64,000 nt of DNA, taken from the IMG/VR virus record IMGVR_UViG_3300031853_000017, positions 2,397 through 66,396 of that record. One strand, given 5' to 3'. Origin of the DNA: a virus (lineage: Duplodnaviria; Heunggongvirae; Uroviricota; Caudoviricetes). Positions 1,517 through 41,724 of this stretch are shown piece after piece (position 1 is the first letter of the stretch; each line of letters begins with the position of its first letter). Both the position numbers and the translations under genes were made by a program. Under the pieces are notes generated by a model. It did not search any database. It was not told the DNA's origin and worked only from the letters and a program-made list of their open reading frames with translations.

Positions 1517-1798
1517 ATGACAATCAAGGAATTTTTCGCAGACTACAGCGAGGAATATGCCGATGTTTTTATTCTGGATTCAGAGGACGACGGGGACGCA
1601 TACAGAGGCACGGTATATCCTTTTAATGGAGAAATATCAATTGATTTTTCGGACGAAACGCCCAATCCGGCGGCTATGCGAAAAGCTAAACAGACCGCGC
1701 AGCAGCAACAATACGAAATTACCAGAGCATACCGGAGCGGCACAATTCAGACCGGCTACAGAGCAACAGACATCACGGCGGAATTTTTAAGAGCCTAA
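1517..1798 (+). CDS. hypothetical protein
   Basis: AAAGGAGG SD + ATG. Confidence 0.6.
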   Translation: MTIKEFFADYSEEYADVFILDSEDDGDAYRGTVYPFNGEISIDFSDETPNPAAMRKAKQTAQQQQYEITRAYRSGTIQTGYRATDITAEFLRA

Positions 1799-1880
1799 AC
1801 GGTAAACAAAAAAAGGTTAATAAGCAATTACACCGATAATTTGGCGAATTGCTAAAAATAAAAAAGTGAGGTATTTGAAA

Positions 1881-2087
1881 ATGGTATTGAACATCATCAT
1901 CGGAACACTTGCAGTGGCATACATTACTTTTAATTTTGTTGTCAGTAACAGAATGGACATAAAGGCAATGACCGCAAAGTTTATCACGGGACAGAATGTT
2001 GTCGGCAAGATCGCGACAAACATCTTCTATGCGCCGGCATGGGTTCTGAAAGGATTAAAATTCCTTGCAGTAAAACTAATCAAATAA
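1881..2087 (+). CDS. small membrane protein
   Basis: GTGAGG SD; one hydrophobic helix. Confidence 0.5.
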   Translation: MVLNIIIGTLAVAYITFNFVVSNRMDIKAMTAKFITGQNVVGKIATNIFYAPAWVLKGLKFLAVKLIK

Positions 2088-2200
2088 TTACATAAAGCTG
2101 AGCTAACGGCTATACGGGCAAATTAAAACACAATTAAAGCGATTATATATTGACCGTTTTAATTATGGTTTAACGGAAAAAATACAAAGGAGTGAACGAA

Positions 2201-2365
2201 ATGGCAAAGGGAATTAAATGTACAGTAATTTGCAATACAAAGTGGGGCTATTGTATGACTCCGCGTGAATGTAAGAGCATTAGAGAAGCCGTCCGATACG
2301 CGAAAGACCTGGGAATGGCTTATAGAGTATTTGTTGACGGAAAAGTTGTAAAATCAGGGTGGTAA
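2201..2365 (+). CDS. small hypothetical protein (54 aa)
   Basis: AAAGGAG SD + ATG; below 60-aa ORF cutoff. Confidence 0.45.
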   Translation: MAKGIKCTVICNTKWGYCMTPRECKSIREAVRYAKDLGMAYRVFVDGKVVKSGW

Positions 2366-2379
2366 ACAAGGAGGAAAAT

Positions 2380-2565
2380 ATGGCATACAGGAAATATTAT
2401 AAAACATTTGAGTTTTGCGACACCGAGCAGGAAGCGCAAACAATGTGCGAAAACATCAACCGCACGGCAACCAGACACATAAGAATGAAACATCCGGCGC
2501 ATTATACGCCGTGGAGCAGCACGGACGGAAAAGAACACAAATTTATAGTTTGGTTTGTGAGGTGA
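2380..2565 (+). CDS. hypothetical protein
   Basis: AAGGAGG SD + ATG. Confidence 0.5.
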   Translation: MAYRKYYKTFEFCDTEQEAQTMCENINRTATRHIRMKHPAHYTPWSSTDGKEHKFIVWFVR

Positions 2566-2569
2566 TAGA

Positions 2570-2743
2570 ATGCCAATAGTTATTATTATTGCGGTTCTGA
2601 TCGCCGCAGGGGTTGCAAACGTTGCCGGACAGGACAAACGGAAATCATACGATTCAGACACTACGCGGCAAATGCTGAAAGACATGACAGGAAAAACCAA
2701 ATCGGAATGCCGCCGGATTATTAAAAGATACGGCAAAAGATAA
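2570..2743 (+). CDS. small membrane protein (57 aa)
   Basis: GTGAGGTG SD; N-terminal TM helix. Confidence 0.45.
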   Translation: MPIVIIIAVLIAAGVANVAGQDKRKSYDSDTTRQMLKDMTGKTKSECRRIIKRYGKR

Positions 2744-2756
2744 AGAGGTGAATACA

Positions 2757-3104
2757 ATGAAACCTATGAGATTAACAGAAACAGACAAGAAGCAATTAAT
2801 CGAAAACGGACATACCGAAAGAGATTTCAAACAAATCGAAGAAGCTATGCAGAAATCAAAGACGAAGTATAGCGCCGTCAATATCCAGACCGGAAAGGAA
2901 GAAACGATCCCCCCCCCCCGTGAAAGAGCAATCGAAATCTTAGGGCGCGAAACATGGTTGAGCGGAATTTCAAGAAGCGCATTTCATTGGACTGCTACAC
3001 GAGATAACATGCGCGGATATTTCAAACCGAAATCAGCGGATTATGTTGTTACTCAAATGCCGACATATATAGTGCATTTTGATTCTTCAAATCTTTTCAA
3101 ATAA
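2757..3104 (+). CDS. hypothetical protein containing in-frame C10 homopolymer (PPP)
   Basis: AAGAGGTG SD + ATG; poly-C at 2911-2920. Confidence 0.5.
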   Translation: MKPMRLTETDKKQLIENGHTERDFKQIEEAMQKSKTKYSAVNIQTGKEETIPPPRERAIEILGRETWLSGISRSAFHWTATRDNMRGYFKPKSADYVVTQMPTYIVHFDSSNLFK

Positions 3105-3119
3105 GGAGGAACAGAAAAA

Positions 3120-3407
3120 ATGACAAGAAGTGAAAAGAAAAAACTCATTGCAAACATTCAAACAACAATATGTCTATTTTACAAGGCATTGTTTTCTATG
3201 CCTAAATATGAAGGGTATCAGAAAGACTTGTTATTCGTCGGTTTTGACGTTGAGCAGGCGCGGAAAGAAGTGAGAAGAATCAGCAGCGATTTGAATTGCG
3301 ATACCACACCGGATTATAAACTGACTGCGTACTTTACCAGAACATTGGGAATACTTGCAGAATTATTATCCGCTCAAATGACAGTGCAGGATATTAAAAA
3401 TATATAA
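3120..3407 (+). CDS. hypothetical protein
   Basis: AAGGAGG SD. Confidence 0.55.
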   Translation: MTRSEKKKLIANIQTTICLFYKALFSMPKYEGYQKDLLFVGFDVEQARKEVRRISSDLNCDTTPDYKLTAYFTRTLGILAELLSAQMTVQDIKNI

Positions 3408-3423
3408 CAAGGAGGATTTCAAA

Positions 3424-3786
3424 TTGAAAGCAAAAAAGTTTGAACTGTTTATGTGTTGCTTGGGCAACGGAACAACTGTTTGCAATAAAGCCGTCAGAGA
3501 AGATGGCGATTATAAAACCGTAGCTCACATTTCAGCCGGAGGAAATATCAAATTCTATGTTCCGGAAGATTATATCCCGCAAGAGGATATGCAGATAATC
3601 CGCAAATGTGCAGACAGCGACAAAGCAAAATTCCGCGCGGATTTTGAGAAGATGGGCAAATACGAGCAATATGAAAAAATCCTTGACAGTTTGAACCATG
3701 CGGATTTTCTGAAAGTAACCGCAGACAAAAGACCATTTGACGAGCGTTTGCCGGAACTGCGAGAACACTACTATTCAATAGCATAA
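3424..3786 (+). CDS. hypothetical protein (TTG start)
   Basis: AAGGAGG SD then TTG. Confidence 0.5.
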   Translation: MKAKKFELFMCCLGNGTTVCNKAVREDGDYKTVAHISAGGNIKFYVPEDYIPQEDMQIIRKCADSDKAKFRADFEKMGKYEQYEKILDSLNHADFLKVTADKRPFDERLPELREHYYSIA

Positions 3787-3797
3787 AGGAGGACACC

Positions 3798-3974
3798 ATG
3801 AAAATCTATGCAGAAATTACCATGATGGTTGCGATCGAAACGCAGGAAACCGACGAGGACACAATTAAAGATAAGTTTGCCGATTGCGTTAGATACGCGC
3901 TTGACAATTCAGAAATCACAGATTATGAATACATCAACGTTTTGGAGCTGAGAAAGGCGGTGGAGCAGGAATGA
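3798..3974 (+). CDS. small acidic protein (58 aa)
   Basis: AAAGGAGG SD + ATG; ATGA overlap with next gene. Confidence 0.45.
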   Translation: MKIYAEITMMVAIETQETDEDTIKDKFADCVRYALDNSEITDYEYINVLELRKAVEQE

Positions 3975-12884: not shown

Positions 12885-13062
12885 TAATTTGTATCAAAGA
12901 TACACCTATAAAGAGTGTGCAAGGGAGCAAGCCCGATGACCGTACACCAACCTACTTTATGCAAGGTGGTAATGCTTGACCGATAGGTTTTTTAATCCTA
13001 TCGGTGACGATAGGGTTTTATCTTTTACGGCTCAAATCTAAAATTTAAAAGGATTTGAAACA

Positions 13063-26901: not shown

Positions 26902-27267
26902 ATGAGAGATAATAAACTTGGCTGTTTAGGATTTGTGTTGGTTGTTTTCTTGATAATAGGCGTAATTATTTTTAGTGCGTCTGCAAGCTATAACGAGCAC
27001 ACTTATACAGTTACAATCACAGACAAAGAACGTGTCTATGATAAAGATAGCAGTAAGTATTTGGTTTTCGGAGAAGATGTCGAAACCGGAGAAACAAGAG
27101 TATTTCAAAATACCGATTCGTTTTTTAGAGGAAAATTTGATAGCTCAAATGTCTATGGGAGTTTGAAAAAGGGAGAAACCTATACGGTTACTGTTGTTGG
27201 GTATAGAATCCCACTGTTTAGTTGGTATGAAAATATTATCAAATACGAAAAGGAGAGCAATAAATGA
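26902..27267 (+). CDS. membrane-anchored protein
   Basis: AGGAGG SD + ATG; N-terminal TM. Confidence 0.5.
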   Translation: MRDNKLGCLGFVLVVFLIIGVIIFSASASYNEHTYTVTITDKERVYDKDSSKYLVFGEDVETGETRVFQNTDSFFRGKFDSSNVYGSLKKGETYTVTVVGYRIPLFSWYENIIKYEKESNK

Positions 27268-27809
27268 AGAAACTACTGGTCTTAGTAGATTTTCAAAATG
27301 ATTTTATTGACGGTGCGCTCGGAACACCGGAAGCTATGGCAATCGTGCCGAATGTTATCAAGAAAGTAAAAGAATGGGACGGCGATATTTGGTTTACCGC
27401 AGATACACATAATACAAACTACTTAAATACAAATGAGGGTAAGCACCTTCCCGTTCCTCATTGTATCAGAGATACCGAAGGTTGGGAGTTACAGAAAGAC
27501 GTTGCAGAAATTCTCAGAGAGAAAATGTCACAAGAAGAATTTGAGCAAAATACATTTATTAAATATACATTTGGTTCTGAGAGATTGTGTTTGAGCATTA
27601 AGTTGTTACAATATGATTATGTTGAGTTTATTGGGCTTTGCACCGACATCTGTGTTGCAAGTAATGCAATTATGTTAAAGGCATTTATGCCTGAAACTCA
27701 GATTGCAGTTGACCCCTCATGTTGCGCCGGCGTAACTCCTGAAACTCACGAAGCGGCATTAACTACAATGAAAATGTGCCAGATTGATATTTTGGAGGTA
27801 GTAAAGTGA
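27264..27809 (+). CDS. isochorismatase-family cysteine hydrolase (nicotinamidase PncA-like)
   Basis: VLVDFQNDF (Asp), GLCTDICVASN (catalytic Cys) motifs; ATGA overlap with upstream gene. Confidence 0.65.
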   Translation: MKKLLVLVDFQNDFIDGALGTPEAMAIVPNVIKKVKEWDGDIWFTADTHNTNYLNTNEGKHLPVPHCIRDTEGWELQKDVAEILREKMSQEEFEQNTFIKYTFGSERLCLSIKLLQYDYVEFIGLCTDICVASNAIMLKAFMPETQIAVDPSCCAGVTPETHEAALTTMKMCQIDILEVVK

Positions 27810-28663
27810 TTCAAGTAAACCGCAAAACTGTTGAATTATCACGTTTTCCAGACGGAACACTTCATCTTGTTCCCGAAATTGATTTATCAAGTGCAGAATA
27901 TCACATTACAATTTCGTGGTATTATGAAGATGATAGTGAAATGGCAGCGTTACTGTTTTTGACAAGGTATTTCAAGGAAAATGGCTTTGAAGTTATTCTG
28001 TTCATGCCATATATCCCAAACGCAAGAATGGATAGGGTTAAAAATGAGAATGATGTTTTCACGCTCAAATATTTTGCGGACTTCATCAATTCACTTCATT
28101 TTTCTCTCGTTATAGTTCTCGACCCACATTCAGCTGTTAGTGAAGCCTTAATTAATAATATTATTGTTTTCACTCCTATTGATTACATAGAAAAAGCATT
28201 TGAAAGAGTCAATAAAGAAACGAATGGGGAAATCATTGCATTTTATCCCGATGAAGGCGCAATGAAACGATATTCCGAAATCATTGATTGCCCGTATGCG
28301 TTTGGAGTTAAAAGGCGCGATTGGTCTACCGGAAAAATTCTCGGATTGGACATTATCGGCGATGAAAACTATTTGCGCGGGAAAAATATAATCATTATTG
28401 ATGACATTAGCAGCAAGGGCGGTACATTCTATCATTCAGCAAAGAAACTCAAAGAGGTTGGCGTAAACAAAATTTTCCTCTATGTTACTCATTGTGAGAA
28501 AACAATATTAGAGGGGGAAGTGTTTACAAGTGGGTTGATCGACAAGGTATTTACAACAAATTCTATCTTTACTCCTGCCGCGCTTGAAACGGCAAAAAGT
28601 AAAGGTTTATCGGATAAAATTGAGGTGTTTGAAATTGAAAACGAATCCTATGCTACTGATTGA
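27806..28663 (+). CDS. ribose-phosphate pyrophosphokinase (Prs)-like protein; candidate ADPR-PP synthetase (Adps) of NARP1
   Basis: PYIPNARMDR (Prs PYxxYARQDR-like) and IIIDDISSKGGT PRPP-binding motif; overlaps flanking genes (coupled). Confidence 0.7.
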   Translation: MIQVNRKTVELSRFPDGTLHLVPEIDLSSAEYHITISWYYEDDSEMAALLFLTRYFKENGFEVILFMPYIPNARMDRVKNENDVFTLKYFADFINSLHFSLVIVLDPHSAVSEALINNIIVFTPIDYIEKAFERVNKETNGEIIAFYPDEGAMKRYSEIIDCPYAFGVKRRDWSTGKILGLDIIGDENYLRGKNIIIIDDISSKGGTFYHSAKKLKEVGVNKIFLYVTHCEKTILEGEVFTSGLIDKVFTTNSIFTPAALETAKSKGLSDKIEVFEIENESYATD

Positions 28664-30104
28664 TTTTTATAAGGCTGTTCATGCGGAAATGTTGCCGCAG
28701 AATATCACAAAATCAGTATCTTATTTTACACCACGCATGAGCCGCGTTAAGCGTTGGGATAAGGTTGTGATGTTTGGATTGCAAGGTTTTATCAAGGAAT
28801 ATCTAATTGATTTTTTCAATGATAATTTCTTCAATGTCCCGCTCGAAACCGTTATGGGCGAATACACAAGAATCATGGACAACACGCTTGGCAAAAATGC
28901 TTATAATCCAAAGAAGATTGAGAATTTACACAATCTTGGATATTTGCCGATTGAGATTGTAGCATTACCAGAGGGAACGCTTGTGCCTATGCACGTTCCG
29001 ATGTTCGGGATTACTAATACCCACAAGGATTTTGCGTGGCTTCCGCAGTCGCTTGAGTCTTTGATCTCGGCAGAAATGTGGCATCCGATGCTTGCGGCGA
29101 ATGTCGGTTATACATACCGTCAGATTGTCAACAAGTATTATGACGAAACCTGTGATGATAACATTCCACGAGCAAAAGCACTTGGAGCGTTTGATTTCCG
29201 TGGTGAGGAATGTTTGCAGAGCGCGACAAAGGCTGGCGCGGGTTGGCTGTTATCTTTCTTGAATACCGCAACGGTTCCGGCAATTCCGTACCTTGAAAAT
29301 TATTACAACTGTGATTGCACAAAAGAGCCTGTCGGTTTTGGTTCACCATCCACGGAACATTCCGTTATGTGTAGCAATTTCGCGGTTGACGGAGATGAAA
29401 TCACGCTGCTCCGCAGATTGTTGACAGAAATTTATCCGAACACTTCTTTCTCGGCGGTGCTTGACAGCTACGATTATTGGAATGTCATTGACAATATCCT
29501 TCCTCAGTTAAAGCCTGAAATTCTCGCACATAATGGCTGTATGCTCATGCGCGGAGATAGCGGCGATTGCATTGAGGTCGTAACCAAGACGGTATTTAAG
29601 TTGTGGGATATTTTCGGTGGCACGGTCAATAGCAAGGGTTATAAGGTACTTGACCCGCATGTTAAAGCTATTTACGGCGATTCTATCACTGTGCAGCGTT
29701 GCGAGATAATCTATGAAATCCTCAAAGAAAATGGATTTGCTTGCTCAAATGTTGCACTCGGCGTTGGTTCATTCTCATTCCAGTGCATTGAAGAAGATGG
29801 AATATTGAAGCCGTTCACACGCGACACGTTCAGTTCTTGCATTAAGGCTACTTATTGTGAGATTGATGATAAGCCTGTTCCGATTTTCAAGAATCCAAAA
29901 GATGGCGGATTTAAGAAATCTCAAAAGGGTTGTTGTGTTGTTTATAAATTTATGAACAACATTGTTTATAAGGACGAATATACTTGGAAAGAGGCAAACG
30001 AATTACCCTATCAGTTGCTTGAAACCGTATTTAAGGATGGAAAAATCGTTAAAGAGCAAACGCTTTCAGAAGTGCGCTCAGTATTGCACGGAGGTAAGTT
30101 TTAA
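28650..30104 (+). CDS. NAMPT-family phosphoribosyltransferase; candidate Namat of NARP1
   Basis: Colinear similarity to NAMPT: LLIDFYKAVH, LPIEIVALPEG, NSKGYKVLDP...GDS, conserved His in HSVM. Confidence 0.75.
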   Translation: MLLIDFYKAVHAEMLPQNITKSVSYFTPRMSRVKRWDKVVMFGLQGFIKEYLIDFFNDNFFNVPLETVMGEYTRIMDNTLGKNAYNPKKIENLHNLGYLPIEIVALPEGTLVPMHVPMFGITNTHKDFAWLPQSLESLISAEMWHPMLAANVGYTYRQIVNKYYDETCDDNIPRAKALGAFDFRGEECLQSATKAGAGWLLSFLNTATVPAIPYLENYYNCDCTKEPVGFGSPSTEHSVMCSNFAVDGDEITLLRRLLTEIYPNTSFSAVLDSYDYWNVIDNILPQLKPEILAHNGCMLMRGDSGDCIEVVTKTVFKLWDIFGGTVNSKGYKVLDPHVKAIYGDSITVQRCEIIYEILKENGFACSNVALGVGSFSFQCIEEDGILKPFTRDTFSSCIKATYCEIDDKPVPIFKNPKDGGFKKSQKGCCVVYKFMNNIVYKDEYTWKEANELPYQLLETVFKDGKIVKEQTLSEVRSVLHGGKF

Positions 30105-30892
30105 TGGGATTCAATGCAAATAAAGTTAAAGACGATATTGTTGTCTGGATTCGCAAGATGTTTGAAGAAAACGGTAAAGGTTGTAATGCAGTTATCGGAA
30201 TCTCAGGCGGCAAAGACTCAAGCGTAACCGCCGCATTATGCGTTGCTGCTTTAGGCAAAGATAGAGTAATCGGCGTTCTTATGCCAAATGGTAAGCAAGA
30301 GGATAAAAACGTTGCAGTTGAATTGTGTAACCATTTAGGCATTAACCATATCGAGATAAATGTCAAAAATGCGTTTGATTCCATTTTGGAGCAGATTGAC
30401 GAAATTTATATTTCAAAAGTGGATTCTTATATCCCGATTTCTATTTCCGATCAAACCACTATCAACCTTCCTCCGAGATTGCGCATGGCTACGTTATATG
30501 CAGTATCTCAATCTGTTGGTGGTCGTGTCATGAACACTTGTAATCTATCAGAGGATTATGTTGGATATGCGACCAGATACGGCGATTCTGCCGGAGATTT
30601 TGCACCTTTGGCTAATCTGACATCTGATGAAGTTATCGCGGTTGGTGCTGCTTGCGGACTACCAAATTCATTCATCTATAAAACTCCGTCAGATGGGCTT
30701 TGCGGCAAAACTGACGAAGATAATCTTGGGTTTACCTATAAAGTTCTTAATAAGTATATTAGGACTGGTATTTGTGAAGATAGCAAGATCAAGGAAAGAA
30801 TTGTCGCTATGCACAAGAAGAATAGGTTTAAGTTGCAGCCTATGCCGGCATTTCCATACAATGCCGGAAATGGAAGAAATAAACTACGATAA
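30104..30892 (+). CDS. nadE: NH3-dependent NAD+ synthetase (NadE)
   Basis: PP-loop GISGGKDSS; C-terminal similarity to NadE; TAATG overlap. Confidence 0.75.
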   Translation: MGFNANKVKDDIVVWIRKMFEENGKGCNAVIGISGGKDSSVTAALCVAALGKDRVIGVLMPNGKQEDKNVAVELCNHLGINHIEINVKNAFDSILEQIDEIYISKVDSYIPISISDQTTINLPPRLRMATLYAVSQSVGGRVMNTCNLSEDYVGYATRYGDSAGDFAPLANLTSDEVIAVGAACGLPNSFIYKTPSDGLCGKTDEDNLGFTYKVLNKYIRTGICEDSKIKERIVAMHKKNRFKLQPMPAFPYNAGNGRNKLR

Positions 30893-30960: not shown

Positions 30961-31253
30961 ATAAGAGAAGTCAGGAGATAACACCTTGACTTAAAAAATT
31001 CTCTTGTAAAGTAAACATAAAAAACATAATTAAATAATCGTAAGTAGTGAGTATAGAGCCTTTTGAAAAATAGCGAAACATCATTAGAATAATTAGTTCA
31101 TCTCCCTTCAAAGGAGATAGTCTTGGTTAAAGTCCGAGGTGTTGTTTCAAAGTTTGGATAAAGAAAAAGATAACATCGCGCGGGTTATCTCCCACAGGTG
31201 AAAGTCCTGTGGCTTACGTTGATATAGATATTACATTACAAAGGGAGTTACAA

Positions 31254-32873
31254 ATGTTAAACATTCTTATTCCAATCGGCATTGCGGTTGCGGTGCTTGC
31301 GTTTATAGTCATTTTCCTCTGTCGAATTTACAGAGTAGCAGACATTGACAAGGCGCTGATTATCACCGGAGGTAAAGAACCAGTCATTAAAGTATCAGGT
31401 GGTAGTTTTGTCGTTCCGATTTTCCGAAAAGCTCAGTATTTTGATTTATCAATGCTGACTGTTACAGCAGACCGTGATGAAGTAAAGACTAAAACATCAG
31501 TTCCTATCGTTATTGATTGGACAGCCCAGATTCGACCAGATACAATGAATCACGATAATTTACGTAAAGCAATTATTTCATTCAAAGAGCGAGGTCAAAA
31601 GGGCATTATCAATGACATCAAATTGACACTAACAGGTGCGGTTCGAGATATTGTTGCCGGAATGACACCGGAAGAAGTTCTCCGCGACAAACAGGCATTT
31701 GCCGAGAATGTAAGAGAAACAGTAGCAGATGAAATGGTCAATATGGGTATGGAGCTTGTTTCGCTCAATATTCAGGATATTTCAGACCAGAACGGCTACT
31801 ATGACAACATTGCTGCGCTCGACATGGAAGATAAACGTCAGGCTGCGGAAAAGAAGAAGGCAGTAATCAATGAATCCGTTCGTTCCCAGAATGCAGAATC
31901 AGAGAGAATTGCTTCACAAAACGAATTAGCCGCTGCATTGGCTGTCGCTGAAAAGCAGAGAGATAACAATATTAAGAAAGCGGCGTACAAGGCAGAAACA
32001 GATAAGGCTAATGCCGATGCGAACATTGCCGGCGAGTTGCAACGTACAATCAGGCAACAGGAAGTTGCAGAGCAACAAGGTCGTGTTGAGGTTGTAAAGC
32101 AGGAACAGGCTAATCTTGCGGCGATTAAAGAGCAGGAAGTAATTGCGACAAAAGCCGAATCCGAGAAAAAGAAAAAGCGGATTGAAGCAGAAGCAGACGC
32201 AAATGTTCAGACCATCGGCGCAGAAGCAAGGGTAAAGGTTGCCGAAAATGAAGCAAGCGCTGTAAAGATTCAGGCAAATGCACAGGCTGAAAGACTTAAA
32301 ACAGAAGGTGATGCCACTGCCGCAGTTATCAAGCAAAAGGGTATTGCGGAGGCTGATGTAACCAAACAGAAAGGTCTTGCAGCGGCGGAAGTCGAAAAGC
32401 AACAGGGTCTTGCACAAGCAGAAGTAATTAAGCAGAAGGGTCTTGCAGAGGCGGAAGTTGAAAGACAGAAGTTGATGGCACAGGCAGAAGGCGAGAGAGC
32501 ATTGGCGGATGCTCGTGCTTCAAATGAGAAAGTAAACTTTGAAATTGAGAAGTTGAAGCTCGAAACACAGGCAAGAATCACCATTGCTACCAAGACTGCG
32601 GAGCTTATGGCTGATGTAGGTAAGAATGCGGAGTTCGTTAATATTGGTGGCGGTGCTGCCAACGGCGGAACTGGAAACGTATTGACCGACACACTTTCAA
32701 GCATTCCAGTGCTGATGAAGAAATTAGACGCGGAAAATACCGCTCTAAACGGAAAGCCTTTCAATGATGAACTGCGAAACCTGATTGCAAGTATTGCAGA
32801 ACCAGTCAAGGGATTGCTTTCAACGACGGTGAATGAAGCACCGAAAACTGTGGAAGATACCGACGCAGAATAA
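31254..32873 (+). CDS. flotillin/SPFH (band 7) domain protein
   Basis: N-terminal TM + SPFH core + long Ala/Glu/Lys-rich QKGLAEAEV repeats typical of flotillins. Confidence 0.7.
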   Translation: MLNILIPIGIAVAVLAFIVIFLCRIYRVADIDKALIITGGKEPVIKVSGGSFVVPIFRKAQYFDLSMLTVTADRDEVKTKTSVPIVIDWTAQIRPDTMNHDNLRKAIISFKERGQKGIINDIKLTLTGAVRDIVAGMTPEEVLRDKQAFAENVRETVADEMVNMGMELVSLNIQDISDQNGYYDNIAALDMEDKRQAAEKKKAVINESVRSQNAESERIASQNELAAALAVAEKQRDNNIKKAAYKAETDKANADANIAGELQRTIRQQEVAEQQGRVEVVKQEQANLAAIKEQEVIATKAESEKKKKRIEAEADANVQTIGAEARVKVAENEASAVKIQANAQAERLKTEGDATAAVIKQKGIAEADVTKQKGLAAAEVEKQQGLAQAEVIKQKGLAEAEVERQKLMAQAEGERALADARASNEKVNFEIEKLKLETQARITIATKTAELMADVGKNAEFVNIGGGAANGGTGNVLTDTLSSIPVLMKKLDAENTALNGKPFNDELRNLIASIAEPVKGLLSTTVNEAPKTVEDTDAE

Positions 32874-33813: not shown

Positions 33814-34216
33814 GGGGCTGAAATAGATTCGACAGGGCACAGAAAACATATAACTTCGCAGGAATGTAACATCCTTAAAGTACACCTTAAAAAATAAACG
33901 ACACTACTGTTGTTACACTTCATCCCGCGCTTTTAGCAGTTCTCGGTCAGAGAGCCGTAGCGTGAGATTCCGATAAGTACCTGCTATTCGGTCTAACTTG
34001 TCGGACGGAAATAGAATAGCAACCAATGGTTTCTTACTTCCGCAAAAAGTAAGTGGTGGAGTGGGTGTAAATCTTTACATCTCCATTCGTTTCCCGCGAA
34101 TTAAAACAAAGTTGTGGTTTGCAGGTTTCCACGGAGAAAAATCGGCTATTGCGTAAGAAAAGTTAGTGTGAGTATGTGTTTTGGACACGGAGGGCAGTTC
34201 TCCGTCAGCTCCACCA
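33814..34216 (+). ncRNA. ssrA: tmRNA (ssrA)
   Basis: 5' GGGGCTGAAATAGATTCGACAGGG matches tmRNA 5' consensus; 3' GGACACGGAGGGCAGTTCTCCGTCAGCTCCACCA matches tmRNA T-arm/acceptor/CCA; ends pair. Confidence 0.7.
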
Positions 34217-35470: not shown

Positions 35471-35545
35471 GCGCCAGTAATTCAGTGGAAGAATAACGCA
35501 CTTTTAATGCGGAGGTCGGAGGTTCAAATCCTCTCTGGCGCACCA
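35471..35545 (+). tRNA. tRNA-Lys(TTT)
   Basis: Acceptor GCGCCAG/CTGGCGC, loop CTTTTAA, CCA. Confidence 0.7.
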
Positions 35546-35589
35546 TCTCATACACAACCAGCAATATTAAAGGCACAGTCTGTCAAACT

Positions 35590-35700
35590 GTATTACCTCA
35601 CTTGTGTATGGTTCATAAGGCACATTAACAGCAAATTTACAATGGTAAACAAGAAGTCTGGAAAATTTTAAGTGAGTAGGTTCAAATCCTGCAACCGTGC
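35590..35700 (+). ncRNA. tRNA-like element with insertion carrying AACAGCAAATTTAC motif
   Basis: T-arm GTAGGTTCAAATCCTGC with possible acceptor TATGGTT/AACCGTG; motif at ~35626. Confidence 0.25.
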
Positions 35701-35798
35701 TATGCACGTTCTTAAATGTGTCTTGATTACAAACAAAAAAAGATACGAACAGCGAAAGCTCCTAAGTGTCTTGAAAAGAAAGAAAAGGAGAAAAAGAA

Positions 35799-37352
35799 AT
35801 GTCATTTTTTACTGAACTTCAAAACAACATTAACGAGATCAACAATTTGCAGCGTACCGAAAATGGCGCTCTTGGTTACAAATCGACCGGCAAGACTATC
35901 CTTGACATGAACTTTGACGTTCCGAAATATCGTCATTCTTCGCCGGAAGAGATTCTCGCCAAGTTTAATCAGGCGCGTTCGGAAAATCCCACGCTTGCTA
36001 TCCTGTGGACATTCTTTGCAAGAGATGTTCGCGGCGGTCTTGGAGAAAGAAGATTGTTCAGAATCCTGTTCCGCGAAATCTGCAATTCTGATACCGAAAC
36101 TGCAAAGAAGGTTATTCCTTTGGTTTCTGAATACGGCAGATGGGACGATTTGATTTATTCTACAATCAATACTCCTGCATGGGAAAAGACCATTGAGGTT
36201 GTCAAGGCGCAGTTGCTTGAAGATACCGATAACGTTAAGGCAAACAAGCCTATTACGTTGCTCGGAAAGTGGCTGCCCAGCGAGAGAACTTCAAGCGTAC
36301 AAACAAGAGAAACCGCGCGGAAGATTGCACACGACATCGGTTTGCCGATTAAGGATTACAACCGTATGCTTGTCGCTTTGCGTAAGTATTCAAATGTCGT
36401 TGAGGTAAAAATGAGCGCAAGAGAATGGGGCGCGATTGATTATTCAGCCGTTCCTTCCTATGCAAACTTGAAGTATAACAGTGCTTTCCTTCGCAACGAC
36501 GAAGAAAGACGTAGAAAGTACCTTGCGGCACTCACAAAGGGCGAAACCAAAATCAATGCTTCTACTGCTTATCCGCACGACATTGTGAGGAAGTACAAGA
36601 TTGGTTGGAGTTATGCCAATCATGCAGACGAAGCGATCGAAGCAATGTGGAAAGCGTTGCCTGACATGGGCGGCTTGGAAAACACAATCGTTGTTGCAGA
36701 TGGTTCCGGCTCAATGTATGGCGGTGGAAATCCTTCGCCGATTGACGTTGCGAATGCCCTTGCGATTTACTGCGCCGAGCATAACAAAGGTGAGTTTTAC
36801 AACAAGTATATCACATTCTCGCGTACCCCGAAGTTTGTTGATTTAAGCAAAGGCAAGACTTTGTTGGATAAACTCAACATTGCAAGTCGCCATAATGAGG
36901 TTGCCAACACGAATATCGAGGCTGTCTTTGACATTATTCTTGATACGGCGATCGAGAGCAAGGCGGCGCAAGAAGATATTCCGAAGTCAATTCTTATCAT
37001 TTCCGATATGGAATTTGATAGTTGCGCGGAATCTAATTCATCATCTCGTCGTGGAACGACAAGTTATTATTCCATGCGCAGTTACAACCGCCCTGATTCA
37101 ACTCTGTTTAAGCAGATTGAGAAGAAGTATGCGGCGGCTGGATATAAAATTCCGCGCGTGGTATTTTGGAATGTTGCTTCAAGAACAAGCACAATCCCAA
37201 TGATTGAAAATGATTTGGGTGTAACGCTTGTCAGCGGTTATTCCGTATCAATCTTCAAGATGATTATGGACGGAGAAACAGACCCATTCCAGAATCTTGT
37301 TAATATGCTGATGTCTGAGAGGTATCAGCCGGTTTACAAGGCAATTCAATAA
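35799..37352 (+). CDS. Ro60/Rsr-like protein (TROVE-like N-terminal region + vWA MIDAS domain)
   Basis: 517 aa; C-terminal MIDAS VVADGSGSM and ILIISDME; overall size and domain order as Ro60/Rsr. Confidence 0.5.
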   Translation: MSFFTELQNNINEINNLQRTENGALGYKSTGKTILDMNFDVPKYRHSSPEEILAKFNQARSENPTLAILWTFFARDVRGGLGERRLFRILFREICNSDTETAKKVIPLVSEYGRWDDLIYSTINTPAWEKTIEVVKAQLLEDTDNVKANKPITLLGKWLPSERTSSVQTRETARKIAHDIGLPIKDYNRMLVALRKYSNVVEVKMSAREWGAIDYSAVPSYANLKYNSAFLRNDEERRRKYLAALTKGETKINASTAYPHDIVRKYKIGWSYANHADEAIEAMWKALPDMGGLENTIVVADGSGSMYGGGNPSPIDVANALAIYCAEHNKGEFYNKYITFSRTPKFVDLSKGKTLLDKLNIASRHNEVANTNIEAVFDIILDTAIESKAAQEDIPKSILIISDMEFDSCAESNSSSRRGTTSYYSMRSYNRPDSTLFKQIEKKYAAAGYKIPRVVFWNVASRTSTIPMIENDLGVTLVSGYSVSIFKMIMDGETDPFQNLVNMLMSERYQPVYKAIQ

Positions 37353-37395
37353 GGTAGCAACTGTATAGCTTGACGGCGGGAAAGACCGCAAATAT

Positions 37396-37514
37396 AAGGG
37401 TGTAGTCTAATGATAGGACACTGGTGATAAATGACGTGTCATGGCGCGGCACAAACAGCAATCAACTATTATCGACCCAAACCAGAAATGTAGGTTCAAA
37501 TCCTGCCGCCCTTG
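37396..37514 (+). ncRNA. tRNA-like element A with ~50-nt insertion (motif ACAGCAATCAAC)
   Basis: Acceptor AAGGGTG/CGCCCTT, D-arm, T-arm GTAGGTTCAAATCCTGC. Confidence 0.35.
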
Positions 37515-37521
37515 TCAATAT

Positions 37522-37648
37522 TGGGATGTAGCTCAGTTGGTTAGAGCAACGTAAAAATACAAAAGGTGTTTTGTAAAAGCACTTGCAGCAATTTTAACGT
37601 AAAGCATGTTAAGCCGTAGGTCGCAGGTTCGAGTCCTGCCATCCCAGC
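37522..37648 (+). ncRNA. tRNA-like element B: Ala/Val-type acceptor+D-arm, ~55-nt insertion replacing anticodon loop
   Basis: TGGGATGTAGCTCAGTTGGTTAGAGC...; 10-bp helix ACGTAAAAAT/ATTTTAACGT encloses ACAAAAGGTGTTTTGT hairpin and CTTGCAGCAATTTTA; T-arm GCAGGTTCGAGTCCTGC. Confidence 0.4.
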
Positions 37649-37653
37649 CTATA

Positions 37654-37758
37654 TGCGGGTGTAGCTCAGTTGGTAGAGCGTATAAATATAATGTTTTGCG
37701 AAAACATTAACAGCAATTTTATTATAATGTCAGCAGTTTAAATCTGTTCGCCCGCACC
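37654..37758 (+). ncRNA. tRNA-like element C with 29-36-nt insertion in anticodon region
   Basis: GCGGGTGTAGCTCAGTTGGTAGAGC; stem TATAA/TTATA; insert AATGTTTTGCGAAAACATT hairpin + AACAGCAATTTTA; T-arm AGCAGTTTAAATCTGTT; acceptor CGCCCGC. Confidence 0.4.
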
Positions 37759-37759
37759 G

Positions 37760-37935
37760 TTTTCATACGCTAACAGCAACCATTATTTACATCAGACCAT
37801 GTATGCCTGAACCGTGAATTTTTAGCGTATGGTTTATATAAGACACACGCAGCAATTTTACATACGGATAATAATTAAAACTGCAAACTTTAATTTAGGT
37901 GGTTCAAATCCACCAAACTTAGTGTCTTGAATACA
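37760..37935 (+). ncRNA. repeat units with ACAGCAA...TTTAC motifs and a T-arm-like GGTGGTTCAAATCCACC
   Basis: CATACGCTAA...TTAGCGTATG 10-bp inverted repeat around motif; second motif CACGCAGCAATTTTACATAC. Confidence 0.25.
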
Positions 37936-37945
37936 ATTACATATG

Positions 37946-38077
37946 GGTGGCGTAGCTCAGTTGGTAGAGCGGTTTTACTTTTCTATTCCCGTGTCTTAGA
38001 GAGTCACGCACAGCAACTTTACAGAATTATGCTTTAGGAGCAGCGTGTCGCAGGTTCAAGTCCTGTCGTCACCCCCC
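37946..38077 (+). ncRNA. tRNA-like element E with ~60-nt insertion (motif CACAGCAACTTTAC)
   Basis: GGTGGCGTAGCTCAGTTGGTAGAGC ... T-arm GCAGGTTCAAGTCCTGT, acceptor CGTCACC. Confidence 0.4.
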
Positions 38078-38178
38078 AACATCTTGCGCAAACAGCAATT
38101 TTACATTTACATCAAACTTTTAATTTGACACGTAGGTAAGCGTAAGGAAAAAATATTACAGTAAATATAAAAAACTTA

Positions 38179-38207
38179 TTGACAAACTCAAAGGTTTGTG
38201 ATATAAT
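38179..38207 (+). promoter_or_regulatory. sigma70-like promoter
   Basis: TTGACA-17-TATAAT. Confidence 0.55.
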
Positions 38208-39201: not shown

Positions 39202-39537
39202 ATGGGATTGGGCGCAGATACTACCGTTCGCGGTACTATTAGAGAATACATACTAAATGAGCAAGGTGGAAAATGTGCTATTTGTGGTATTTCAAATATG
39301 TGGAACAATAAACCTTTGGCATTTATATTAGACCATATAGATGGTAATGCCGCAAATTCAGCAAGAGAAAACGTAAGACTTGTATGCCCAAACTGTGATA
39401 GTCAATTAGATACATATAAATCTAAAAATAAACATTCAGCACGTTCTGGAAGAAAAAAGTATCTAAAAGAAGTAAGAAATGAAAAAATGGCTGGTGAAGC
39501 AGACAAGCGTGCTGCAACCGACTTGAAATCGGATTGA
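39202..39537 (+). CDS. HNH homing endonuclease (conserved zinc-finger-like N-terminal extension encoded in frame upstream from 39061 without canonical start)
   Basis: LDHIDGNAANSARENVRLVCPNCDSQ HNH motif; upstream in-frame CNDVCIICGKRL... Confidence 0.6.
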   Translation: MGLGADTTVRGTIREYILNEQGGKCAICGISNMWNNKPLAFILDHIDGNAANSARENVRLVCPNCDSQLDTYKSKNKHSARSGRKKYLKEVRNEKMAGEADKRAATDLKSD

Positions 39538-40863: not shown

Positions 40864-41724
40864 TTGACGGGAGAATACATAGTGAGTAAGAAGCGAAGCG
40901 AATTTGATAAACGGATGAAAAAATACGAATATGTTAGCCGGACATATTTGACAACACGAACGCCCGTAATTATTAGAATTGACGGCAAATGCTTTCATTC
41001 CTTTACTCGCGGATTTAAGAAACCATTTGATGAAATTCTTTCCGGCACAATGCAAGAAACAATGAAATATCTTTGCGAGAACATCCAGGGCTGCGTTCTC
41101 GGCTACACACAGTCGGACGAAATCACATTGATTTTGGTTGATTATAAAGATATTGATACTTGTGCTTGGTTTGATTACAACATTCAGAAATGCGCAAGTG
41201 TTGCCGCGAGTATGGCTACTATGGCTTTTAACACATTATTCAAGGAAATAAATGATGATTGGTGGTTTGGTTTAACGAATAAATGGGTCGAGTCAGGAAT
41301 GACTAAAAATACATTTATTCCAGAGCCAGATATAGAACTATATAACAAGCATAGTTTAGCTATAAATCAAAAAGGCGCAATGTTTGATGCTCGTGTTTTC
41401 AACATTCCTAAAGAGGAAGTATGCAACAACATTTTATGGCGACAACAAGACGCAACCCGAAATTCAATTCAAATGGTGGGTCATGCAAATTTTTCTGATA
41501 AGCAAATGCACGGCAAAAACACAAGCCAAATTCAGGATATGCTTATGTTTGAAAAAGGCATTAACTGGAATGATTTCCCGACAAAATATAAGCGCGGAAG
41601 TTGTTGCGTCCGTAAAGTGAATGAACAGACCGGCAGAAGTGAATGGGTTATCGACAATGAAATCCCGATATTTAAGGGCGAGGGAAGAAAATATATTGAT
41701 AATCTCGTTTTTGTCGGCGATTAA
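40864..41724 (+). CDS. Thg1-like tRNA-His guanylyltransferase / 3'-5' polymerase (TLP)
   Basis: KYEYVSRTY...IIRIDGKCFHSF...GYTQSDEITLIL colinear with Thg1 N-terminal catalytic region. Confidence 0.7.
   Translation: MTGEYIVSKKRSEFDKRMKKYEYVSRTYLTTRTPVIIRIDGKCFHSFTRGFKKPFDEILSGTMQETMKYLCENIQGCVLGYTQSDEITLILVDYKDIDTCAWFDYNIQKCASVAASMATMAFNTLFKEINDDWWFGLTNKWVESGMTKNTFIPEPDIELYNKHSLAINQKGAMFDARVFNIPKEEVCNNILWRQQDATRNSIQMVGHANFSDKQMHGKNTSQIQDMLMFEKGINWNDFPTKYKRGSCCVRKVNEQTGRSEWVIDNEIPIFKGEGRKYIDNLVFVGD

Follow-up and report, generated by a model that had tools for sequence, protein, structure and literature searches.

A probable Ro60/Y-RNA-type ribonucleoprotein in a phage tRNA island: a divergent protein and a family of module-bearing, tRNA-shaped RNAs

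Introduction

Does a phage gene of Ro60-like layout, together with the tRNA-shaped elements that flank it, code for a ribonucleoprotein of the kind formed by Ro60 and Y RNAs? The question is raised by a 64-kb stretch of an apparent phage genome (IMG/VR record IMGVR_UViG_3300031853_000017; this whole stretch is termed the window) in which the surroundings of the Ro60-like gene are a phage-type tRNA island. The window's 15 ordinary tRNAs called by ARAGORN lie in the interval from 31 to 41 kb, and every gene of the island is on the + strand. A first-pass annotation of the locus had proposed a phage Ro60 accompanied by tRNA-like ligand RNAs. The analysis presented here supports that proposal: the RNAs are a structured family tied to the gene, with permuted members and, in the module-bearing tRNA-likes, almost no encoded CCA. 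The locus probably specifies a divergent Ro60/Y-RNA-type ribonucleoprotein, made of a divergent protein family and a previously uncatalogued RNA family.

Y RNAs tether Ro60 to PNPase, and those of the YrlA class mimic tRNA. Known Y RNAs have a terminal stem adjoining a bulge with a conserved motif and are encoded beside the Ro60 gene (PMC4201824; PMC12135203). The published Ro60-contact motif is GNCGAA (PMC4201824, Chen et al. 2014). Thermus phage phiLo codes for a Ro60 with the RNAs Yrl1/Yrl2 (PMC12135203). Related loci are designated below by L numbers.

The Ro60-like protein

35799-37352, + strand: Ro60-like gene, 517 aa; N-terminal alpha-helical solenoid (DUF2828) and C-terminal vWA domain (DUF7788)

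The open reading frame (ORF) first reported at this position is present, and the DGSGSM signature of its MIDAS (metal ion-dependent adhesion site) corresponds to residues 301-306. Residues D301, G302, S303, S305 and M306 are invariant among 31 homologous sequences, and G304 is nearly so. Pfam (E<=1) returns DUF2828 (E 4e-28), DUF7788 (E 4e-43) and a weak VWA_2 match, while PHROG 850, labelled 'RNA-binding protein', matches the protein at E 2.7e-126.

An AlphaFold2 model built from the alignment of the 31 homologues (predicted local distance difference test 79, predicted template modelling score 0.70) combines an alpha-helical (HEAT-like) ring domain with a vWA domain C-terminal to it and can be superposed on solved Ro60. 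The top twelve Foldseek matches to this model are Ro60 entries (~520 aligned columns, E 4e-7 to 4e-4), originating from Thermus phage phiLo, Deinococcus Rsr, Xenopus and human, and full-length matches to solved Ro60 proteins rank above every vWA-only match. The Ro60/Rsr size and layout attributed to the protein at the outset agrees with this full-length alignment of the predicted fold. Because of the Foldseek ranking and the conserved MIDAS, combined with the lack of a TROVE match (see below), the 517-aa protein is Ro60-like by predicted fold and architecture but lies outside the TROVE family by sequence models.

Homologues with 30-39% identity are found by tblastn in 710 of 50,697 cultured-phage records. 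Their carriers include Felixounavirus, Listeria P100-like, Staphylococcus, Campylobacter and Vibrio phages and mycobacteriophages. The mycobacteriophage proteins are annotated 'Ro-like RNA binding protein', and most of the others among the phage records listed are 'hypothetical' or 'vWFA protein'. At least 8,000 homologues are present among genome- and metagenome-derived proteins.

An RNA module with a covarying helix

Alignment of every CAGCAA in the window and in 63 loci retrieved via the protein reveals a common module, composed of a 7-nt strand (commonly AAGRCRC), YNA, CAGCAA and then N-U-U-U or a U-rich tract. For most copies a strand exactly complementary to these 7 nt lies 30-150 nt downstream and is followed by G, defining helix P1. 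The eight motif copies of the first-pass annotation are all present, at most 10 nt from the positions given there (CAGCAA starts at 35629, 37456, 37586, 37711, 37774, 37850, 38011 and 38093), and two had been overlooked, at 35559 and, as the variant CAGCGA, at 35750. The description of the motif as a purely single-stranded 13-mer has to be abandoned, its 5' part being one strand of the covarying helix P1. The string CAGCAAYTTTA, allowing at most one mismatch, has 8 matches in the 64 kb; 7 of them fall within 35559-38103, all on the + strand, against a chance expectation of ~0.1 for one strand of that interval.

The core was defined independently of P1 in 294 distinct instances. A perfect 7-bp P1 partner followed by G accompanies 188 of them, compared with 1.0% for shuffled downstream sequence and 14.8% when partners are swapped between units. 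There are 53 distinct P1 helices. Across 73 units with distinct P1 strands all seven pairs vary on both sides, with a covariation score of 1.01 (0.24 in shuffles) and 177 double-change cells (35 ± 6 in shuffles); only these covariation measures are informative in that set, which was picked for perfect pairing. In the reverse test, conditioned solely on the presence of a P1-like helix, CAGCAA occurs exactly at +10 in 82 of 123 cases.

Most units bear just an anticodon-arm-like hairpin. Among 303 distinct open units, 122 have a hairpin of 5 bp and 7 nt with a YU-NNN-R loop (11.7 in shuffles), ~35 of these being T-loops, and UUU and GUU are the commonest anticodon-like triplets. No Rfam 15 family matches the module-bearing elements of the window or of the loci of Escherichia phage garuso, Listeria phage P100 and Mycobacterium phage Vetrix, and searches on DUF2828, DUF7788, permuted phage tRNA and Ro-like noncoding RNAs returned no published description of this RNA family. 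The ~20-nt motif was also considered as a promoter. This was rejected, since P1 covaries with a partner 30-150 nt away and the core is identical in phages whose hosts differ in promoter type.

Linkage of the module to the gene

A module on the gene's strand precedes the gene by at most 600 nt in 58 of the 62 protein-anchored homologous loci. The bin from -500 to 0 holds 147 modules and any other bin at most 34. Searches by motif alone give a compatible picture. A scan of IMG/VR yielded at least 120 stretches with 132 module matches among them; for these listed stretches, a perfect P1 partner plus G is present in 104 of the 132 matches, tRNA genes lie within 2 kb, always on the same strand, in 103, and the gene itself is found in 53 of the 120 short stretches. 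Bacterial genomes provide the cleaner control because chance matches are expected there about as often as real ones. Their scan gave 120 matches, and the gene lies within 8 kb of 35 of the 42 that have a P1 partner but of 1 of the 78 that do not.

In cultured phages of four bacterial phyla, 2-4 units adjoin the gene:

Escherichia phage garuso (Felixounavirus): 4 units, P1 AGACCAA/TTGGTCT
Listeria P100: 3 units, P1 AGGAATC/GATTCCT
Mycobacterium phage Vetrix: 3 units, P1 TGGACGC/GCGTCCA
Campylobacter F368: 2 units, P1 ATGGTAC/GTACCAT
Staphylococcus CF1: 3 units, P1 AAGACAC/GTGTCTT

P1 is unrelated across these lineages. Constant in all of them are CAGCAA, the G that closes the unit and a linker of 3 nt with A as its last base. 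With the 58 of 62 loci, these phages bear out the expectation that the motif would recur beside Ro60 homologues in related phages. Among 95%-identical relatives, nucleotide identity is 96.7% in the RNA region, 92.1% in the gene and 98.6% in a neighbouring ORF, values that are not diagnostic.

Units in the window

Ten module copies flank the Ro60-like gene within 2.6 kb, all on its strand (+) and all at most 800 nt from it:

35549-35611, + strand: U1, free-standing 63-nt unit; P1 CATACAC/GTGTATG, AAC-CAGCAA, closing G
35617-35725, + strand: U2, 109 nt; P1 AAGGCAC/GTGTCTT (one G.U pair)
35740-35773, + strand: U3, minimal 34-nt unit with variant hexamer, AAGATAC-GAA-CAGCGA-AAGCTCCTAA-GTGTCTT-G
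37396-37514, + strand: A, tRNA-like; Rfam tRNA 47.3 bits; 55 nt between anticodon-stem strands CTGGT/ACCAG
37522-37647, + strand: B, tRNA-Asn(GUU)-like; Rfam tRNA 51.2 bits; 63 nt between anticodon-stem strands
37655-37756, + strand: C, tRNA-like; Rfam tRNA 50.4 bits; 34 nt between strands TATAA/TTATA
37764-37832, + strand: free-standing unit, 69 nt; CATACGC-TAA-CAGCAA ... GCGTATG-G
37840-37929, + strand: D, 90 nt; P1 AAGACAC/GTGTCTT, ACG-CAGCAA
37946-38074, + strand: E, tRNA-like; Rfam tRNA 40.3 bits; 70 nt between anticodon-stem strands
38083-38147, + strand: F, free-standing 65-nt unit; CTTGCGC-AAA-CAGCAA ... GCGTAAG-G

U1 begins 4 nt 3' of an ordinary tRNA-Lys (35471-35545) and carries the anticodon-arm-like hairpin ACAGT-CTGTCAA-ACTGT (Asp GUC-like); the arm of F is TCAAA-CTTTTAA-TTTGA (Lys UUU-like). 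The body of U2 has a T-arm-like GTAGG-TTCAAAT-CCTGC followed by the small hairpin GTGC-TAT-GCAC, a layout found in L100/L166-type units; its call is less certain than the others because the linker before CAGCAA has 5 nt (ATTAA) instead of 3. U3 ends 25 nt before the start codon of the Ro60-like gene and is kept in the close relative L184, where U1 and U2 are replaced. D combines a Cys(GCA)-like anticodon arm with the T-arm GGTGG-TTCAAAT-CCACC.

Elements A, B, C and E exceed the gathering score of the Rfam tRNA model (RF00005, 29 bits), which tolerates large local insertions, and none of them is called by ARAGORN run on the window. Their anticodon arm is interrupted by 29-56 nt. The earlier count of at least five elements with canonical tRNA features amounts to these four complete ones; D and U2 are partial, with a T-arm and no D-arm. 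Element A has the acceptor AAGGGTG/CGCCCTT, a D-arm and a T-arm, with its module CAGCAA at 37456 and a residual loop GACCCAA that lacks U33. In C the acceptor is GCGGGTG/CGCCCGC, the D-arm is canonical and the module hairpin reads ATGTTTT-GCG-AAAACAT-TAA-CAGCAA. E has the acceptor GGTGGCG/CGTCACC and a 56-nt module after nt 28/29, whose excision would give GTTGC-TTTAGGA-GCAGC (anticodon UAG) and a short variable loop.

In element B the 5' strand of the anticodon stem is interrupted after nt 29 by a 52-nt hairpin-closed module (37552-37603; P1' GTGTTTT/AAAGCAC, TTG-CAGCAA). The anticodon loop of B had been thought to be replaced by a 10-bp helix, ACGTAAAAAT/ATTTTAACGT. A helix does exist there, with one A.A mismatch, but the loop ATGTTAA is intact 3' of the insertion. 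Removal of 37552-37603, the unique excision solution, restores the perfect arm ACGGC-ATGTTAA-GCCGT (Asn GUU), and splicing, if it took place, would yield a 75-nt tRNA in which GAGCAACG is joined to GCATGTTAAGCCGT. B has G73. CCA is not encoded in A, B or E.

No strong promoter or terminator was found after the upstream tRNAs in the region up to unit F. A perfect sigma-70 promoter (38179-38207; TTGACA, 17 nt, TG-TATAAT; 12/12) lies directly 3' of F, before tRNA-Leu (38286). Its sequence hints at a host that uses canonical sigma-70 promoters, and its position marks a likely 3' boundary of the transcription unit of the module cluster. Given this layout, the units and the Ro60-like gene are probably co-transcribed with the upstream tRNA array.

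Such an arrangement, likely a single transcript in need of processing, is also what would be expected if the module were a cis-acting element of a polycistronic tRNA/gene transcript, either an endonuclease entry site for separating transcripts or an autoregulatory leader of the Ro60-like mRNA, and not a part of a stable ribonucleoprotein. In the same direction goes the placement of the units, which in most loci directly precede the start codon; the commonest distance from the end of the last open unit to the ATG is 28-42 nt. This explanation is nevertheless improbable. Units come in tandem sets of 2-4, are also located 3' of the gene (Felixounavirus, Staphylococcus CF1, Vetrix and the window) and inside tRNA bodies, and the elaborate tRNA-like bodies are left unexplained. 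The constancy of the core across hosts of four phyla that differ in their RNases moreover suggests that its reader is encoded by the phage.

Topologies of the tRNA-derived bodies

The elements with CAGCAA between a D-arm and a T-arm were submitted to an excision test, in which a single deletion had to bring back a stem of 5 bp closed by a loop of 7 nt that has U33 and R37. A unique solution exists in ~20 distinct elements, with a block of 41-57 nt. In most cases the block interrupts the 5' strand of the anticodon stem, following nt 28 or 29, and in a few cases it is at 31/32, just before the loop; its 5' boundary most often falls between CG and TA. The anticodon loop, located 3' of the block, is preserved in all elements that have a unique solution. 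The AAGRCRC-like strand of these embedded copies pairs with a complement ~20 nt upstream (GYGYCTT-G-loop), so that P1 is closed by a loop and not by the RNA ends.

Other family members have the converse arrangement, with P1 enclosing the body. Three groups are distinguished. In the first (L080, L113, L168 and L170) P1 and the module are followed by a complete cloverleaf and the second P1 strand. In the second, the enclosed body is an anticodon arm plus a T-arm, as in D (L089, L157 and L159). The third group consists of circularly permuted tRNAs closed by P1 (L069 6132-6256, L072, L085, L110 and L181), an arrangement that is also that of YrlA; the YrlA match of L069, full-length though sub-threshold, likewise favours a Y-RNA-like reading. 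In L069 the module is succeeded by the anticodon loop and 3' strand, the variable loop, the T-arm and the acceptor 3' strand, and these by a loop, the acceptor 5' strand, the D-arm, 'ACG' and the P1 3' strand. The break point after ACG is the site of the hairpin in B-type elements, and L069 shares the flanks ACG-AATTAAA...CAGCAA-T(C/T)TTCTTAA with the embedded element L009 3584. Because of this coincidence the family is described as a tRNA-shaped RNA with an extra arm at the 5' side of the anticodon stem, whose chain ends either at the acceptor or at P1; reduced forms also exist.

The range of topologies bears on whether the repeats act as DNA, as a small mobile element or recombination site that entered tRNA genes and the stretches between genes. 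Each locus has many copies, some inside tRNA genes, which are frequent integration targets, and copy number differs between relatives, the cluster A-F being absent from relative L187. An action as DNA is nonetheless very hard to credit: the copies are strictly strand-specific and co-directional with genes, P1 covaries instead of being conserved as a terminal inverted repeat would be, unit interiors are not conserved, the permuted and leader-trailer layouts are meaningful at the RNA level only, and no transposase is associated.

Mimics or interrupted tRNAs

The module could alternatively be a processing signal and the tRNA-like elements precursors of working tRNAs. A protein endonuclease and an RNA ligase (e.g. 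host RtcB) would excise the hairpin-closed module from B-type genes and circularise or re-open the permuted genes, with the Ro60-like protein as platform or chaperone. Splicing of this kind is unlikely and is retained as a minority alternative because the evidence on mimics versus interrupted tRNAs is mixed.

The uniqueness of the excision solutions, each giving a perfect stem and loop, speaks for it. The bodies retain U8, A14, G18G19 and the T-loop, and the D-stem of A has a compensatory change relative to 95%-identical relatives, showing that the tRNA-like bodies are under structural selection. The anticodon arm of B is that of genuine, uninterrupted tRNA-Asn genes elsewhere, and RNA-repair genes are found nearby. 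A parallel can be drawn with the archaeal bulge-helix-bulge motif, which is used by introns, permuted tRNAs and leader-trailer helices, just as the module occurs in cis insertions, at permuted ends and in leader-trailer contexts. A further feature shared with archaeal and eukaryal tRNA introns and permuted or split tRNA genes processed through this motif (reviewed in PMC4090602) is a short non-self-splicing insertion, of ~30-60 nt, in or near the anticodon arm, non-canonical stem positions included.

Several observations oppose splicing. No bulge-helix-bulge is evident on inspection of the junctions, and the module is separated from the exon boundaries by variable distances, of 6-14 nt at the 5' boundary and of 8-13 nt, counted from CAGCAA, at the 3' one, which makes a ruler-type enzyme unlikely. 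No RNA ligase or splicing endonuclease was found among the ~30 window ORFs scanned in the 64 kb of genome, in line with the earlier failure to recognise such an endonuclease. With the block placed 5' of the loop, neither A nor C yields a clean excision; for C, all solutions cut at the loop's 3' end. Mini-units, which offer nothing to splice into a tRNA, make up most of the family, and most module copies are outside tRNAs. The setting also differs, these being phages of bacteria, in which we know of no splicing endonuclease.

A further difference is the 3' end. CCA is encoded in 13 of the 15 ordinary tRNAs of the window and in 200 of 241 in related loci, but in only 2 of 56 module-bearing tRNA-likes overall and in 0 of 4 in the window. 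L001 has an ordinary tRNA-Asn (G73, CCA) alongside a module-bearing Asn-like element (C73, no CCA). Orthologous scaffolds differ in anticodon, one acceptor scaffold bearing GUU, UGU or UUU depending on the phage. The discriminator base fits the anticodon identity for Lys and Pro and not for Asn, a comparison that is uninformative.

Triplet changes were also seen in other comparisons. Orthologous tRNA-like elements of L011/L018/L040 (~2996-3108) and L017/L021 differ in the triplet alone, UGU or UGA, and the triplet of a free unit is UUU or UGA (L011 3834 versus L021 2161); in L021 both element types have UGA.

The insertions, of 29-57 nt, were correctly judged too short for group I introns, and no Rfam intron family matches at E<=10; a group I intron or other known ribozyme was dismissed on the same Rfam search. 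Bacterial group I introns resemble the present elements in interrupting the anticodon region of tRNAs, including tRNA-Asn (PMC3984707; PMC13011429), but they have ~200 nt or more and reside in the loop, not in the 5' strand of the stem.

A more far-reaching version regards P1/CAGCAA as a portable signal for protein-catalysed RNA cutting and rejoining, with module-bearing and permuted tRNA genes of bacterial phages matured into working tRNAs, by excision, ligation or circularisation, on the Ro60-like platform. We hold this to be improbable. If true, it would be a bacterial-world counterpart of archaeal bulge-helix-bulge splicing. In a related variant, the tRNA-shaped RNAs could serve as decoys for, or sensors of, anticodon nucleases of the host, in a coupling with RNA repair.

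A proposed portable handle for the Ro60-like protein

The preferred reading remains a Ro60/Y-RNA-type ribonucleoprotein. The Ro60-like ring, an alpha-solenoid with a vWA/MIDAS domain, would bind a portable RNA handle made of the 7-bp P1, whose 5' strand is followed by YNA-CAGCAA-(U-rich) and whose 3' strand is followed by G. The handle is found on tRNA-derived bodies ranging from bare anticodon-arm hairpins (U1 and F) and anticodon arm plus T-arm (D and U2) to whole cloverleaves and circularly permuted tRNAs. A, B, C and E are bodies of normal topology with a loop-closed handle, which in B and E springs from the anticodon stem, on its 5' strand. On the analogy of Y RNAs, the handle would serve to dock the protein, and the tRNA-like body may attract, or act as a decoy for, factors that bind tRNA, e.g. 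enzymes of RNA repair or processing or anticodon nucleases of the host. The identity of the tethered factors and the purpose, be it repair, processing or defence evasion, are suggested by this analogy only.

A number of results weigh against this reading. The check proposed in the first-pass annotation, a search with the Pfam TROVE and VWA models, gave no TROVE match to the 517-aa protein at E<=1 and, for VWA, the weak VWA_2 match alone. A profile of the 31 homologues retrieved from the PDB sequences neither Ro60 nor any solved structure, and NCBIfam has no match to the protein. A sequence-level tie to Ro60 was accordingly discarded, none being found via Pfam, NCBIfam or the PDB profile search. 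On the RNA side, the YrlA model (RF02553; gathering threshold 69 bits) stays below threshold, with 43.7 bits over the full model length at L069 6155-6267 and 35.4 bits in the window, and has no match in the garuso, P100 and Vetrix loci. The Ro60-contact motif GNCGAA is replaced by CAGCAA, with one CAGCGAA variant, in U3 (35750). A second helix, between the U-rich tract 3' of CAGCAA and the A-rich tract before the P1 3' strand, was rejected because its pairing equals the base-composition expectation; no second helix flanking the bulge is supported, so the fold of the handle is defined for P1 alone. Excision of one block restores a canonical anticodon arm, as removal of an intron would, and a pure mimic would not obviously need a restorable arm. 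Finally, the adjacency of module and gene could reflect another partner.

The window match to YrlA (37597-37704) was rejected as a real permuted RNA. It spans two elements, B with its 3' half and C with its 5' half, whose cognate acceptor stems pair 7/7, compared with 5/7 for the cross-pairing.

Relation to known RNA systems

The protein has the ring-shaped solenoid and vWA/MIDAS organization of the bacterial and phage Ro60 (Rsr) that partner YrlA, for which phage examples are known (PMC4201824; PMC12135203), but it belongs to DUF2828/DUF7788, without similarity at the level of hidden Markov models to TROVE or to PDB Ro60. As in the Ro60-YrlA systems, small RNAs are encoded a few hundred nt from the gene on the same strand, often in several copies, and the stem formed by their 5' and 3' ends adjoins a conserved unpaired motif and a second, tRNA-mimicking module; some members are circularly permuted tRNAs, like YrlA. 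The motif is different, YNA-CAGCAA plus a 3' G instead of GNCGAA, with Rfam YrlA scores below threshold, and the anticodon arm is kept instead of being swapped for the Ro-binding stem. The handle also occurs in several topologies, including a hairpin inserted in a tRNA of normal topology, which to our knowledge is undescribed for Y RNAs. What is new with respect to Ro60/YrlA is the protein family, the RNA motif, the retained anticodon arm and the multiple graft topologies.

GOLLD and ROOL RNAs share the location in phage tRNA islands but have 400-600 nt, unrelated structures and no linked Ro60-like gene. Sub-threshold matches to these families were detected: GOLLD at ~103 bits in module-bearing tRNA arrays (gathering threshold 150) and ROOL at 86 bits in Listeria P100 (gathering threshold 99). 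Twister-P1 gave 42 bits in module-bearing arrays (gathering threshold 67). Sub-threshold RNA matches are located at L072 1447-1903, L181 2558-3014, L200 1423-1974 and L085 1222-1302.

Neighbouring genes and other RNAs

A Band_7/SPFH gene recurs a few kb from the Ro60-like gene in unrelated phages, including mycobacteriophage Vetrix (gp52), and its product could be a third component of the system:

window 31209-32873: Band_7/SPFH gene
L197 11743-12612: Band_7/SPFH gene
L198 14662-15708: Band_7/SPFH gene
L201 1048-2007: Band_7/SPFH gene

Genes for RlaP, a KTI12-like kinase and a Thg1-like protein are recurrent neighbours as well. According to a review of jumbo phages, ROT/TROVE proteins with their tRNA-like partner are, alongside RlaP and Thg1, a platform for RNA repair (PMC7824862). 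The Band_7, RlaP, KTI12-like kinase and Thg1 context fits this RNA-repair setting of Ro/TROVE. In the window the Thg1-like gene (tRNA-His guanylyltransferase family, 3'-5' polymerase) is found among the downstream tRNAs (40864-41724) and is kept in L184 and L185. An Endonuclease VII/HNH-like ORF (39202-39537) lies among the same tRNAs.

In L184, whose Ro-like protein is 95% identical, the place of U1 and U2 is taken by a gene for a 567-aa Cas12f/TnpB-like protein (1764-3467) and repeats. Five 36-nt direct repeats (GTTTTAGAACACTATGAAATTACATAGGTGCAAAAC) with spacers of ~30 nt, at ~3620-3900, look like a phage-borne mini array of the CRISPR type.

The island also contains a transfer-messenger RNA (tmRNA), and the related tRNA arrays L100 and L166 have tmRNA genes too:

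33814-34216: tmRNA within the phage tRNA island; Rfam 60.7 bits, gathering score 47

One of the two ordinary window tRNAs without encoded CCA (31077-31148; Rfam tRNA 40.3 bits) has the anticodon UCA and is called 'SeC' by ARAGORN. It may be an opal suppressor, hinting at stop-codon recoding. Just upstream of the tRNA island there is a block for salvage and synthesis of nicotinamide adenine dinucleotide (NAD+; 27264-30892), coding for an isochorismatase-family (nicotinamidase-like) protein, phosphoribosyl pyrophosphate synthetase, a NAMPT-like protein and NAD synthase; a similar set is found near the gene in L198. An S-adenosylmethionine riboswitch (S-box) aptamer is located at 12903-13016 (49.5 bits, Rfam threshold 44.4) in this apparent phage genome.

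Significance

Ro60 and Y RNAs form a long-studied ribonucleoprotein, and the present protein family is far larger than the set of phage Ro60 studied so far. The handle, which can be found by sequence, offers the protein a concrete candidate ligand, and the carriers infect tractable hosts (E. coli, Listeria, Staphylococcus and M. smegmatis). The handle is also a means to annotate hundreds of unrecognised noncoding RNAs in phage tRNA islands, elements that are missed by ARAGORN or liable to be mis-called as intron-containing tRNAs. Inserted, permuted and reduced tRNA chimeras are unusual for any ribonucleoprotein, and they bear on how phages deal with tRNA-targeting host defences and RNA repair.

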